Source: an uncultured Verrucomicrobiota bacterium (lineage in GTDB: Bacteria > Auribacterota > JABMQX01). Taken from it: a stretch of 64,000 bases of DNA. Position numbers and translations under genes: made by a program. Position 1 is the stretch's first letter, and each line of letters opens with the position of its first letter. The notes under the pieces are model-generated. The model was not told the DNA's origin. It worked only from the letters and a program-made list of their open reading frames with translations, and ran no database searches. Below, piece by piece: positions 392 to 7,300 of the stretch. The stretch covers positions 64,661 to 128,660 of the forward strand of contig CAYZXL010000006.1 of assembly GCA_964482435.1 (NCBI GenBank), given 5' to 3'.

Positions 392-1636
392 TTGCGAGCC
401 TTCCCAGAGCCAATGCTTGCTCCCCACCTTCGCGAACGCGATGGCGTATCCTCCCGTTCCACGCGCGCCTCCGCAGATGAAGGGAAAGGACCACGTGGAG
501 GCGAGAGCAGGTGGATGCGGGGAGCAACGGTCAGCAACGGAATCGTGACGAACTTTACGCCTGCGGAGACGAAGAGGTACGTCTATCTCGGCGGGTCCGG
601 AATAAGAGAGCTGGATAATACCTCTCCTCCCAACGCGCTGAAAGAATACGTTAGGTGTGGCTCTAACCTGGTGGCATGGGCATCTTGCCAATGTCAGTGC
701 GTCACGACATTGCTCACGGGCGAGACGCCCGTGCCACGAGAGGTCGGCGTCCCCGTGACGGCAGGGGTCGAGCCTGTGAATCTGCCGCTGACTCGGAGCC
801 TCACCCAGTACGTCAGGGGGCTTGACTTAGGAGGGGGGATCGGAGGTATCATTTATCAGAAGAAAGGGATGGATTATTATTACTACCACTACAACCACAA
901 GGGGGACGTGGTGGCTCTGACGGATGGAACTGGGAAGCTCGCAGCCTATTACGAGTACGATGCGTGGGGGAATACGATGACCCAAGCCCGAAAGAGCGGC
1001 GTGGACAACCCGTACCGCTACTCGACGAAGGAATGGGACGAGAAGTCCGGCCTCTCCTACTTCGGCGCCCGGTACTACTCCCCCGAAATCGGAAGATGGA
1101 CCCAGAGGGACCCACTGGGGGAGGTGGACGGGCTGAACCTATACGCGTACTGCAAAGCGGATCCAGCGGGGCGGCTTGACCCGCTCGGGCTGCAGTTCAT
1201 GCCGCCGATAATATTCACGCCCTCCGAGGACCTTGCGTTCCCGGACGCGAGGTACAGGCCGGCGCCGGGCCCGGAGCGTGAGGCGAGCAAGCGATGGTGC
1301 CTGGCACGATTCGAGACGTGCCTTGGGAACTGCATTGATGCCAATAGACTCGACCTGAATGAGTTTCTCGACTGGTGGGGCATCATCCAGGTCGGAGGCA
1401 ACCTGGTCTTCGGGGAGAAGGCGACACATTTGGGAAGAGGACAGCCCCTCACGAACTGGCAGCACAAGCTCTTCTGGTGGATCGGGCGAAGGATGGGCTG
1501 GGGTGAGGGGTTCATTCGTGTAGGGAGGGTGATCGGCAAGTGGGGCGTTGCGGCAACGGTTCTCGAGGGATGGTTTAAGCTCGGCGTGGAGCTGTACTGC
1601 GCCGGGGTGTGTGCCATCGATCCCGACGCTTTTTAG
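392..1636 (+). CDS. RHS/YD-repeat C-terminal cassette 1: the last YD repeats, the RHS repeat-associated core (…DNPYRYSTKEWDEKSGLSYFGARYYSPEIGRWTQRDPLGEVDGLNLYAYCKADPAGRLDPLGL) and a ~145-aa Trp/Gly-rich C-terminal domain that is probably the toxin
   Basis: The translation contains KRYVYLGGSGIRELD…TQYVRGLDLGGGIGGII…YYYYHYNHKGDVVALTDGTGKLAAYYEYDAWGN. This is the canonical RHS shell and core ending in the DPxGL cleavage motif. A variable tail follows. The ORF-track start is a TTG at 392. An ATG at 869 with an upstream GAAAGGG sits at the point where the homology to cassette 3 begins. The true start is uncertain, and the ORF may be the 3' part of a larger decayed rhs gene. Confidence 0.6.
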   Translation: MRAFPEPMLAPHLRERDGVSSRSTRASADEGKGPRGGESRWMRGATVSNGIVTNFTPAETKRYVYLGGSGIRELDNTSPPNALKEYVRCGSNLVAWASCQCQCVTTLLTGETPVPREVGVPVTAGVEPVNLPLTRSLTQYVRGLDLGGGIGGIIYQKKGMDYYYYHYNHKGDVVALTDGTGKLAAYYEYDAWGNTMTQARKSGVDNPYRYSTKEWDEKSGLSYFGARYYSPEIGRWTQRDPLGEVDGLNLYAYCKADPAGRLDPLGLQFMPPIIFTPSEDLAFPDARYRPAPGPEREASKRWCLARFETCLGNCIDANRLDLNEFLDWWGIIQVGGNLVFGEKATHLGRGQPLTNWQHKLFWWIGRRMGWGEGFIRVGRVIGKWGVAATVLEGWFKLGVELYCAGVCAIDPDAF

Positions 1637-1701
1637 GCCGAAAACCAGTGGAGACCGGTGAGGGCTGCGCGTCTGCGGCCCAGTTCAAGGGAACTCGGTT
1701 C

Positions 1702-2241
1702 ATGGCCGTGATCGAATTCCTCGCTCTCAGCGTTGCGCGGGTGCGGGCCGCCTTGTTGGTCGCGCCCGTCACAAGTGCCGACCCTCCGGTTATCGTGAGA
1801 GTGATATTGCTTGTGGCCTTCGTAGCGGTCCCGGTGCTGGCGGCAGTCCTGTGGTCCTGGCAGGCGAGACGCGGAAGGCTGGCAAGGGTTAGCACGCGCC
1901 AATCGCTGTCGCCTCGGGCTTTCTTCGATGAGTACTACGGCGATTCCGCCCTCGGTTCTGAGGAAGTGGGGGCGGCCATAAAGGAGGTTTCCGCCGTTTT
2001 GGGAGTTCCGGCAGGCGTCATTAGACCGTCCGACCGCTTTGACACTGAGCTCGCGCCCGCGCGCGGGTGGGAGTTTGATGATAGCGCCATTGAGCTTGCT
2101 TGGCGCCTGGAGCTAATGGCGAAGGAACGAGGCGTGTCGGTGGATTTGGTGCACATTCGGACCGTAGATGACTTCGTCCGGTGCTACTGCCGCCTGTTGC
2201 CAAGGGTGCCAAGCGCTGAAGAGGAGCCTGTTGGAATGTGA
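1702..2241 (+). CDS. putative immunity protein for cassette 1: two N-terminal TM helices plus a soluble C-terminal domain
   Basis: It lies immediately downstream of the cassette 1 toxin domain. The ATG at 1702 gives MAVIEFLALSVARVRAALLVAPV…ILLVAFVAVPVLAAVLWSW, which has two hydrophobic helices. There is no recognisable family. The call rests on position and composition. Confidence 0.4.
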   Translation: MAVIEFLALSVARVRAALLVAPVTSADPPVIVRVILLVAFVAVPVLAAVLWSWQARRGRLARVSTRQSLSPRAFFDEYYGDSALGSEEVGAAIKEVSAVLGVPAGVIRPSDRFDTELAPARGWEFDDSAIELAWRLELMAKERGVSVDLVHIRTVDDFVRCYCRLLPRVPSAEEEPVGM

Positions 2242-4249: not shown

Positions 4250-4351
4250 GGGGCTGCTCTTCGGCCGCGCCCAAGACCCCCGTTGCGGGGCCGCCCGCGC
4301 CGCGACTGCGGACGGAATCACCCGTTCTTCTCCGTGCGCGAACCTGACTTC

Positions 4352-7300
4352 TCAGTTAGAGGCCGGCGCCACGGCTGCTTCGGCCGAAAATTCCGGGGAA
4401 GCCTCCGCTCGCCGTACGGAAGCTTCCCCTCTCCCCCGGGTCAACTTTGCGGAAACCACCTTGGATTTTCCGCTTTCCTCCATGGTGATGCCATAGAGGA
4501 CGTCGGAGGCGGCAATGGTTCTCTTGTTGTGGGTGATGATGATGAATTGAGAGTTCCGGGCGAACTCGCGGAGAACCTCGGCGAACCGCATGATGTTGGA
4601 GTCGTCGAGCGGCGCGTCAATCTCGTCGAGAATGCAAAACGGGCTTGGCTTGACTTTGAAAATGGCGAAAAGGAGGCTGATGGCGGTCATAGCTCGCTCA
4701 CCGCCGGAGAGAAGAGAAATGCTCTGAAGCTTCTTGCCGGGCGGGCGGGCGATGATTTCGATTCCGCTTTCTAAGATGTCGGATTCGTCCACGAGAACGA
4801 GGTCGGCCCTTCCACCGCCGAAAAGGCGCTGGAACATGGTCTGGAATTCTTCGCGGATTTTCTCGAATGTGTCGCGGAAAAGGACTTTGCTTTCGCGGTC
4901 GAGCCTTGCGATGGCTTTGTGGAGAGATTCCCTCGCCTCAACCATATCCGACTGCTGAGCAGTGAGGAAATCGTAGCGGTTCTTGAGAGTCTCGTATTCT
5001 TCGATGGCGCAGAGGTTGACGGGTCCCATGAGCTGGAGCTTTTGCTTCAGGTCGCCAACCCTCTCCTGGATTTGCCGCCAGTCCGTTTCGTCGGGAAGTG
5101 GAACGGCTTTCGGGTCATCGTGCCTCAAGGCGTATTCGGCCATGAGGCGCTCGTCAATGCTGTTCATCGAGAACCGAATTTCAGTGAGCTTGAGATCGAG
5201 GGCGGAGATTTCTTTTTCGCGCTCGTGGGCGGCGTTGGTCTTCTCCTTTATTTCCCACTCGAGCTGAGTGAGTTCGTCAACGAAGGCTCTTCTTTTCTCG
5301 TCGAGCTTTTCGATGGCGGTAGTGACTTCGTCTTTTTGGGTGGTGAGGGAGGCGATCGCTTTTCGGCACTCCTCGACTTCCCTGAGGAGGTTGCTGATCT
5401 GGGTTTTTCCTTGCTCGGTCTGGCGCGCGCGGCTTTCGACTTCCCTTTCGGTGAGGTCGAGTTGCCCACGCATATACTCCATTTCGTTCTGAAGGTTGGC
5501 GATTCGCTCGTCATAGGAACCTTTAGCAAGAGCGATTTCCGCGACGTCTCTCTTGATGGAGGCGACATCCTTCTCGGCACTGTCAACCGTCGCGCCGGCG
5601 AAGGAAATCGCCCGTTCCAACTCGGCATGCTGGTCGCCGACGACACGATTCTCCTCGCCGAGAGATTTCCTCTGATCTTCGAGGCGCTTCTGTTCGGACT
5701 CGGTCTGGTTTTCCCGTGCGGTCGTTTCGTTTGCCTGGCCGGTGAGGGATTGAACGGCGGCAGAAAGGTCGAGCAAATCTCTTCCTGCTATTGCGAGTCG
5801 TTCCTCGGTCCTGGAGATGAGGGCGGTCTGCTCTTCGGACTTTTCCGTGAGGCTTTTCACGGCCTCAATGGAGTTGTTTTCCCGTGCGCGGAGGTCGTTA
5901 AGCATTTCTCGTTGTTTTTCTTCCTCGGCGGCGAGGGCGGCGATGCGCGATTTCCTGCCCATGAAGCCGGGCGATGAACTGGACACTTTTCCGGCGGTGA
6001 GGACGAACCCTTTCTCGAGTTTCTCGCCGGAGGGGGCAACGAACGTCAGAGCAGAATTGCTCTCCGCGGCTAACGCCACGGCCTGTTCCAGGTCGGCAAC
6101 AAGGACGGTGTCACCGAGCAAGTATTCCACGGCTTTCTGATAACGCGGCTCGAAGGAAACGGCGTCCAGGAGAGGCGGGAAGACGGAGCCCTTTTCGTCC
6201 GAAAGGTTTCGGGCGGCATCTCTCGCTCCGTTGCCGTCGCGCACTACATCAAGGGGCAGAAAGGTGGCTCTTCCACGGGCTTTGTCCCGGAGAAACCCGG
6301 CAGCCCTCTTAGCGTCCTCGGTTGTCTCGGTGAGAATCCACTGAACCCGATTGTCCAGGGCGGCTTCGACAATGGCCTCATGTCCCGGCGAGACATCGAG
6401 AACGTCCGCGACTGTGCCGACGATTCCGGTCAGTTGTGACTTTTTGCGGTGCGACTCCTGAATGACCGACTGAACGCCGGCGTCATAGCCCTCGTGTCGC
6501 TCGACAGCCTCAGCGAGAAACCGTCGCTCGGAACCAATGCCCGAAACCGCAGCCTCTGCCCGGAAAATCTCCGTGCGGATGTTCTGTAGGCCGTCCTGAG
6601 TCTCCTTCAGGCCGGCGCGAAGAGCAGCAAGTTCGTCCTTTTCACTGCGGAGTTGCAGACTAAGAGCTTCCTTGTTCTGCTGGCGTGCGTGGTGTTCCTG
6701 TTCCTTCTGCTGAAGCGCCGCAAGGGTCTCACCTTTCTGACGGCGAAGCGTGGCGAGCGTTTGTTCGTTGTGGCCGTGCCTCTCGTTGAGAGAAGAAAGG
6801 CTGGCGCGGATTTCGGTCTCTCGTCGAATGACATCAAGGAGCCGACCGGATAGGTCTCCTGACTTCGCCTCGGATTTGCGGAGTTGTGCGAGTGTTCCTT
6901 CCAGTTCGTCTTCTCTCTTTTTGAGTCTTTCAGTGCAATTTGCCCGGTCCTGACAGAGCTTGTCCAGGCTCTTCTGCTTTTCGCTTATCGCGCTGCGGAG
7001 GGCTGCGGCTTTCTGCTGCATTCCCCTGATTTCTGCCGAAACGTTTTCGGCGAGGGAACGCGTATCTGCGATTCGCTGCTCGTGGAGGGAGATGTTTCCC
7101 GATTCGCGGTCAATGCTCCTCAGGAGGTCGAGCTTTCTGGACTGCAATTCCTCGTGCCGCAACTGGGAGCTCTGAAGCTCCGCCCGTGCCTGGCGGGCGC
7201 GCGCCTCCCGCTCCTCGACCTCCGCAGCCAGTCTCCGGATGACCTCCTGGACCGCATCGCGTTCCTTCTCCAGCGACTTCATCTCCTTAGCAAACTGAGC

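Follow-up and report, generated by a model that had tools for sequence, protein, structure and literature searches.

A probable chromosomal array of orphan Rhs toxin cassettes with candidate immunity genes in an uncultured Verrucomicrobiota bacterium

Described orphan Rhs modules and the array beside smc

Orphan Rhs cassettes are a well-described means by which bacteria store and exchange weapons, and a C-terminal displacement model was reportedly set out by Jackson et al. in 2009. Here we describe a locus of this kind in a 64,000-nt stretch of DNA (hereinafter designated the window; contig CAYZXL010000006.1 of assembly GCA_964482435.1, forward strand, positions 64,661 to 128,660) from an uncultured Verrucomicrobiota-like bacterium. 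Between positions 392 and 4249 the window holds five plus-strand open reading frames (ORFs), as counted from the ORF listing and by direct reading, and we consider it likely that they make up an array, on the chromosome, of orphan Rhs C-terminal toxin cassettes, each truncated at its 5' end, together with cognate immunity genes, and that no full-length rhs gene stands at its head.

The closest described systems are the orphan rhs-CT/rhsI modules of Enterobacteriaceae, found at the Dickeya dadantii rhsC locus and in Yersinia and Salmonella (Poole et al. 2011, PMC3150448). Such a module consists of a truncated core, a unique C-terminal domain (CT) and an immunity ORF directly 3', and it lies 3' of a complete rhs gene at the same locus. 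All three parts are present in cassette 1 (toxin ORF 515-1636, followed by imm1 at 1702-2241) and in cassette 2 (toxin ORF 2372-3127, followed by imm2 at 3143-3895), where the immunity assignment of imm1 and imm2 is based on conserved gene pairing in other contigs; cassette 3 (3894-4249), set beside such a module, is a core fragment only. The original prediction, made from the sequence letters, had read the locus as orphan rhs-CT/immunity modules, and this reading is borne out by the hidden Markov model (HMM) matches of the cores, by the pairing of the same toxins and downstream genes in unrelated contigs and by near-identical related loci.

The orphan-cassette layout is textbook material, and the locus leaves that picture unchanged. 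It differs from the enterobacterial modules in that no full-length rhs gene adjoins the cassettes (the gene directly upstream is not RHS), neither vgrG nor genes of a type VI secretion system (T6SS) lie next to them, the array ends in a stump, the full-length relative in a related contig (L016) carries a Sec signal peptide instead of PAAR, and the host belongs to an uncultured Verrucomicrobiota-like lineage. What is new is the host lineage, a likely non-T6SS delivery, the family formed by the cassette 1 tail and its immunity protein, membrane-protein candidates for immunity, and a hypothesis of cleavage-gated activation for Rhs toxins that resemble HET-C and phospholipase C (PLC).

Two further systems bear comparison. 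In Salmonella Typhimurium, an orphan Rhs toxin constitutes an internal type II toxin-antitoxin (TA) module beside the main rhs gene and the T6SS, with internal promoters mapped (PMC7043789); the cassettes in the window resemble it in having a shell-less toxin ORF, possibly with its own start, that adjoins an immunity gene, but no main rhs gene or T6SS lies beside them. The auxiliary T6SS clusters of Vibrio cholerae contain arrays of effector-less immunity genes that arose by sequential displacement (PMC5361080). As in those arrays, immunity genes and partial effectors left behind may continue to give protection from neighbours, whereas the toxin ORFs in the window are largely present, Rhs-based and without T6SS context. 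Domain searches of the 64-kb window detected no T6SS, PAAR, VgrG or other secretion genes, and the array shows neither the PAAR- or VgrG-binding N-terminus nor the nearby vgrG, EagR or T6SS genes of a T6SS-delivered Rhs effector. Together with the Sec signal peptide of the L016 relative, this points to a delivery route differing from the enterobacterial model.

Core copies, truncation points and the terminal stump

The RHS repeat-associated core HMM TIGR03696 (~76 positions, cut-off 32.5 bits) matches the array three times: at 956-1192 (ORF 392-1636, aa 189-267, E = 5.1e-26, 91.0 bits), at 2414-2605 (ORF 2168-3127, aa 83-146, E = 8.2e-20, 71.1 bits, model positions 12-75 only) and at 4007-4231 (ORF 3959-4249, aa 17-91, E = 2.2e-24, 85.8 bits). 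The three plus-strand core copies that had been noted from the sequence are therefore all recovered, and a tblastn search of the 64 kb with the core peptide returns these three and no more. The match of copy 1 is complete and includes both protease aspartates and the DPLGL motif. Other RHS profiles reach the array only marginally: NF041261 (RHS_core) aligns over its last ~100 positions only, with 64 bits against a cut-off of 2000, and Pfam RHS_repeat stays below threshold in the array ORFs. A full-length Rhs protein would combine a YD shell of ~1,200 aa or more with an N-terminal delivery or secretion domain, and neither is present in the array.

Judged by codon statistics, for which eight housekeeping genes from the window served as the reference, the cores, both tails and both downstream ORFs carry a coding signal (G+C at third codon positions, GC3, of 0.70-0.79, with the annotated frame scoring best). 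The ORF extensions 392-514 and 2168-2371 show no such signal and were rejected as coding, so the true starts lie near 515 and 2372; the leader at 334-514 (+) has flat frame scores and a GC3 below the value at second positions (GC2), and a scan of it found no promoter-like site. In tblastn comparisons with related cassettes, RHS homology has its 5' limit at about nt 510 (residue 45 of ORF1), and an unrelated gene ends at 333. ORF1 is therefore an N-terminally truncated orphan, which disposes of the earlier suggestion that 392-1636 represents a decayed full-length gene.

The cores are clearly related but far from identical. DNA identity is 84% between 843-1142 and 3894-4193 and 87% between 994-1145 and 2410-2561, and these tracts include runs of 35-44 nt without a mismatch between copies, which are long enough for homologous recombination. 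In the conserved core, the ratio of nonsynonymous to synonymous divergence (dN/dS) is 0.12 for copies 1 and 3 (dS 0.56), 0.04 for copies 2 and 3 (dS 0.82) and 0.31 for copies 1 and 2 (dS 0.18), indicating that the protein sequence was constrained as the cores diverged and that no recent duplication in place produced them. Past RWTQRD, the linker diverges much faster than the core and travels with the tail.

Rhs proteins cut themselves with an autoprotease that, in TcC/Rhs structures, contains two aspartates 23 positions apart (R-D-P ... D-P-x-G-L) and cleaves after the leucine. Direct reading of copy 1 gives RDP...LDPLGL, an intact motif with 23-residue spacing from RD to LDPLGL. Copy 2 reads RE-L...IDALGI, in which the first aspartate is replaced by glutamate and the proline and leucine are changed, and copy 3 reads RD...LDTCRTW*, in which the motif is lost. 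The same replacement of the R-D-P aspartate by glutamate is found in other cassettes with the cassette 2 type of tail (P0002, P0004 and P0006), where DPxGL is relaxed to DA(L/F)GI or DADGL, so that the relaxed protease motif (2519-2524 and 2591-2608 in the window) tracks toxin type.

Cassette 3 (3894-4249, +) retains ~110 aa of core and nothing more. It ends with LDTCRTW* exactly at the expected DPxGL site, has no cleavage motif, tail or immunity gene, and stops 100 nt short of the stop codon of smc (4352-8002, minus strand; TIGR02168, 1023 bits), which is convergent with the array and forms its 3' boundary. The predicted tail-less third copy beside smc is thus confirmed, and we conclude that cassette 3 is a deletion remnant. 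The TGA stop codon of imm2 (3893-3895) falls within the stretch of homology that the stump shares with copy 1, at a point where copy 1 reads GGG, and imm2 enters the RHS fragment in-frame.

Similar architectures occur in related contigs, and long headless arrays that end in a stump are common in this uncultured Verrucomicrobiota-like lineage. In one such array (L015/L020, JGI Ga0315312_1000333), small genes lie between seven cassettes that differ in their tails, there is no full-length head and the array ends in a stump; another (L021, Ga0315312_1000017) comprises three short RHS-core cassettes and ends in a tail-less stump. One tail among these two arrays carries DUF6973. Stumps are present in seven contigs (L005, L017, L020, L021, L022, L023 and L031). 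Among the relatives, L015 and L030 are headless, while L016 and L057 are headed. The rhs relative of L016 (4420-11026) begins with a Sec-type signal peptide, recognized by eye, and continues with ~1,027 aa of YD repeats, an insertion sequence and the P0004 cassette; it contains an internal Glucodextran_B-like Ig domain, a DDE transposase (7585-8976) interrupts it, and its reading frame breaks immediately ahead of the P0004 cassette. In L057, an rhs gene in two parts (1494+674 aa) is followed by an orphan of the cassette 1 tail family and its immunity gene. A further full-length relative is a 1,612-aa stop-to-stop frame in L029.

Tail domains and their candidate immunity partners

The cassette 2 toxin ORF (2372-3127, +; P0001, 251 aa) starts with an ATG at 2372 preceded by AGGTGA, as it does in the public gene call P0001; the ribosome-binding site (RBS) and ATG noted for this copy in the original prediction therefore stand. 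A core remnant of ~65 aa leads to the degenerate cleavage motif IDALGI (2591-2608) and then to tail 2 (2609-3127, +), which is 173 aa long and not ~200 aa as had been estimated. The original prediction could not assign tail 2 to a named toxin family. On its own it matches the Pfam family DUF6765 with 28.8 bits against a cut-off of 26.6 (26.4 bits when the longer ORF is searched), and its relatives also match VWA7_N, Zn_dep_PLPC and Het-C. Its homologues include P0002-P0007 and P0015, with P0002 being 63% identical, and in an alignment with them (A2) residues H7, D36, H52, H80, Q83, D84 and H88 are invariant. The Pfam match and this conserved His/Asp set, which includes an HxxxDxxxH signature, identify tail 2 as a compact zinc-hydrolase domain of the superfamily that unites zinc-dependent PLC, S1-P1 nucleases and HET-C. 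The fold is all-alpha and superposable on PLC or P1 nuclease; an hhalign comparison with a single PLC sequence aligned only LGxxLHxLxD and was not significant, and a literature search on DUF6765 returned nothing.

Tox-HET-C was defined as a toxin domain with the HxxxDxxxH signature and a predicted kinship with PLC and S1-P1 nucleases, and was listed with a PVC metallopeptidase, without repeats and with no immunity protein (Zhang et al. 2012, PMC3482391). Tail 2 resembles Tox-HET-C, zinc PLC and S1-P1 nucleases in its all-alpha fold, its HxxxDxxxH signature, the order of its histidines and aspartates as zinc ligands and the aromatic-x4-His start of the mature chain, but is shorter (~170 aa compared with 245-270 aa), is fused to an RHS core and is accompanied by candidate polytopic membrane partners. 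On sequence grounds, cassette 2 looks intact, and tail 2 is a predicted phosphodiesterase of the trinuclear-zinc type with the PLC/S1-P1 nuclease fold.

The candidate immunity protein imm2 (3143-3895, +) has 5-6 transmembrane (TM) segments, and an identical copy is encoded by an independent Logan contig (L001). In L018, the ORF that follows the tail-2 homologue P0003 encodes a protein with 31% identity to imm2 over 148 aa. Multi-TM proteins follow the toxin in four of five tail-2 relatives: the partners in L016 and L015 are 45% identical to each other, and that in L017 is soluble or lipoprotein-like. These genes supply polytopic membrane candidates for immunity to HET-C/zinc-PLC-like toxins, for which the 2012 survey listed none. 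Since the tail-2 partners are polytopic membrane proteins, membrane phospholipid appears a likelier target for tail 2 than DNA or RNA.

The cleavage site itself offers a second clue to how tail 2 may work. In all eight tail-2 sequences an aromatic residue (Y, Y, Y, W, W, W, W and F) comes straight after the Rhs cleavage position, with a histidine five residues past it (P1' aromatic, P6' His). Mature S1/P1 nucleases begin with WGxLGH at chain residue 1, and the N-terminal main chain of these enzymes is a zinc ligand (PMC5201275). The shared aromatic-x4-His arrangement suggests that the metal site of the toxin may form only after Rhs self-cleavage, which would expose the N-terminal aromatic residue as a metal ligand. 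The idea that Rhs cleavage may create the metal-binding N-terminus of the tail-2 toxin is a testable one.

Tail 1 (1193-1636, +) is the all-alpha C-terminal domain of the cassette 1 toxin ORF (515-1636, +; P0012, 373 aa), in which it follows a shell remnant and the first core. It starts directly after DPLGL (1178-1192) and is 147 aa long and Trp/Gly-rich (nine tryptophans), matching the cleavage motif and the ~145-aa Trp/Gly-rich tail that had been described for this copy. A word-index homology search with tail 1 gave no matches. Exhaustive searching with phmmer recovered eight distant homologues (E from 1e-8 for the best to 1e-3), all of which match at the C-terminus, most directly past the RHS cleavage motif and one in a 1,140-aa RHS protein. 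Through a profile search the family, defined from P0035-P0073, grew to at least 36 clusters, several of them bearing the label RHS repeat-associated and none carrying a Pfam domain. Past the RHS cleavage motif, the family shares the motifs CxxxC(I/V)ExNR, TGRxGxGG..HxTxWQHK, GR, EGFYDxG and CxxxC. Tail 1 of the window retains 15 of the 26 near-invariant positions, among them WQHK, the Cys residues and the EG motif, and has lost 11, including the TGRxGxGG..H loop and the Asp of FYD. It thus remains unnamed, as first stated, and is probably a divergent and degenerate member of a small, undescribed RHS-associated family.

The shell remnant of cassette 1 is interrupted by an in-frame insert of ~160 nt (656-815, +), flanked by GAATACGTTAGG and CAGTACGTCAGG and absent from the homologues P0004, P0005 and P0026. 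Within it lies a palindrome, GTGGCATGGGCATCTTGCCAATG ... CACGGGCGAGACGCCCGTGCCAC, at 671-737. Both of its arms recur at 41933-41984 (+) and 58472-58523 (-), with no matches expected by chance. The element, GTGGCATGGGCATCTTGCCCATG ... CACGGGCGGGACGCCCGTGCCAC, is present in three copies in the window and in two more in L031 (2472-2495 and 3601-3624), and its predicted hairpin has a folding energy of -50.8 kcal/mol (z -3.3). The palindrome is a lineage-specific element resembling repetitive extragenic palindromic (REP) sequences, inserted in the shell remnant of ORF1.

The partner of tail 1, imm1 (1702-2241, +), is a membrane-anchored candidate immunity protein with 1-2 TM segments and a soluble domain, possibly starting at a GTG near 1792-1798. 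The predicted small membrane protein after each of the first two copies is therefore present in both cassettes, at 1702-2241 and at 3143-3895. An imm1 homologue lies directly 3' of a tail-1-family toxin in all four other loci examined (L019, L055, L056 and L057/L058); imm1 shares 29-38% identity with these homologues and the motif lrPxDRFDxELaPxxGWE[YF]DD, and retains every invariant residue of the family. Co-occurrence in five of five loci, the window included, is good evidence that tail 1 and imm1 form a toxin/immunity pair, and this small new pair, of the tail-1 family and a DRFD...GWExDD protein, could be added to toxin and immunity profile collections. No significant match emerged when the tail 1 and imm1 profiles were searched against PDB sequences and Pfam; the best, at a non-significant E of 0.14-0.16, was between the cytoplasmic domain of the imm1 family (alignment A5) and acyl carrier proteins (PDB 2fq0 and 3gzl).

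All imm1-family proteins have one N-terminal TM helix followed by an Arg/Lys cluster. By the positive-inside rule, the ~110-aa domain past the helix would face the cytoplasm, which in turn would place the target of the toxin in the cytoplasm or at the inner leaflet. The loss of toxin residues and the REP-like insert, set beside an intact imm1, suggest that cassette 1 is probably a relic toxin with a live immunity gene. The joint proposal that Rhs self-cleavage activates the tail-2 toxins and that tail 1 and imm1 belong to an undescribed polymorphic-toxin/immunity family active at the cytoplasmic face of the inner membrane is a tentative one, which we regard as somewhat unlikely when taken as a whole.

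Possible function of the array and its chromosomal setting

We picture each unit of the array as a conserved core piece joined by a variable linker, which contains the cleavage motif, to a toxin domain, with an immunity gene behind it; such units may have been displaced from a head gene. The toxins are most likely a silent stock, because no cassette can build the ~1,300-aa YD shell or be exported alone. They would become deliverable only through RecA-type recombination across the common core with an rhs gene of full length, bearing a Sec signal, elsewhere in the genome, and in the meantime the immunity genes would shield the cell from relatives that use these toxins. If the zinc site of tail 2 forms only after cleavage, its orphan copies would be zymogens and safe by their nature. 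Cassette 1 and the stump would represent decay products.

Several observations weigh against this picture. No long RHS ORF or full-length rhs gene is found anywhere in the 64-kb window, so that no full-length partner is seen. ORF1 stays open for 373 codons despite the REP-like insert and ORF2 has an RBS and ATG of its own, either of which could mean translation of the cassettes as they stand. The AlphaFold2 model of tail 1, a four-helix domain without a meaningful fold match, is of low confidence (mean predicted local distance difference test score, pLDDT, of 68), and the promoter and terminator scan of the array was uninformative, giving no evidence either way.

A reservoir for recombination and the mere retention of immunity are mutually compatible uses of the array, and we consider the balance between them roughly even. 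In the purest form of the latter, the array would be an island of immunity genes, with imm1 and imm2 selected against toxins of related strains and the toxin pieces carried along as decaying baggage without future use. The state of cassette 1 fits this explanation well, as imm1 keeps all invariant residues of its family compared with 15 of 26 in its toxin and ORF1 carries the REP-like insert, as do the decay of the third cassette to a stump and the lack of head or delivery genes in the 64-kb window. Tail 2, however, speaks against decay, with its 63% identity to P0002 and its full set of invariant His and Asp residues, and the core segments have been under strong purifying selection, although that selection may date from before orphaning. 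Moreover, the explanation overlaps with a silent toxin stock guarded by its immunity genes and does not exclude it; as a complete account of the locus we think it possible, if somewhat unlikely.

A second explanation would have the truncated toxins made in the producer cell from internal starts and held in check by their immunity proteins, as stand-alone modules of the TA type that serve selfish stabilisation or growth regulation. The Salmonella orphan Rhs toxin provides a precedent (PMC7043789), both toxin ORFs are uninterrupted and follow native codon usage, and ORF2 combines a good RBS and the ATG at 2372 with an intact predicted catalytic set. Internal expression is accordingly possible, mainly for ORF2. 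On the other hand, the aromatic residue at the Rhs cleavage site in eight of eight tail-2 sequences suggests processing, which a shell-less fragment with glutamate for aspartate in the protease site may not perform; partners of the imm2 type, being polytopic, suit a toxin that acts from outside the membrane or within it better than they suit a cytoplasmic TA pair; near-invariant residues are missing from tail 1; and the scan detected no promoter. We judge this explanation improbable for the array.

That a single rhs gene was mis-assembled or collapsed into three copies deserves almost no credence: short-read assemblies do break at these repeats, and contig L001 itself ends inside copies 2 and 3, but the copies differ by 13-19% in DNA (dS 0.18-0.82), the flanks of each are unique and show coding signal, the architecture is repeated in related contigs from other samples, and L001, from an independent short-read data set (ERR4334733) and also carried by four other samples, matches 2494-3961 at 100% identity and crosses the junction of imm2 and the stump. 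With assembly collapse excluded and the downstream ORFs coding by codon statistics, neither of these two objections foreseen in the original prediction holds, and we retain the reading of the locus as orphan cassettes with their immunity genes.

Upstream of the array, the 3' end of a gene that runs off the window (1-333, +; open frame from nt 1 to the stop codon at 331-333) encodes a Pro/Thr-rich C-terminus, has no Pfam match and is unrelated to RHS. A homologue with 37% identity over 56 aa lies ~2 kb 5' of the single RHS cassette of L030 (6963-7763 and 9863-10840, respectively). A conserved position of the array between this gene and smc was considered and rejected, as the upstream homologue is found only in L030, with two genes between it and the cassette and no smc. 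An internal RHS fragment (11658-12143) follows the single cassette of that contig.

No Rfam families were found in the window. The other 60 kb are ordinary chromosome, with an ABC sugar transporter, mnmA, bioB, fabG/fabF and the nusA-infB-truB-ribF-pnp genes. Four predicted surface proteins of very large size (1,291-1,946 aa) are also encoded in this part of the window, at 23828-28729 (-), 29458-34443 (-), 35295-41135 (+) and 59042-62917 (-). Their domains are, in turn, PKD and legume-lectin; PKD; lamin-tail, CotH kinase and TSP3 repeats; and a right-handed beta-helix.

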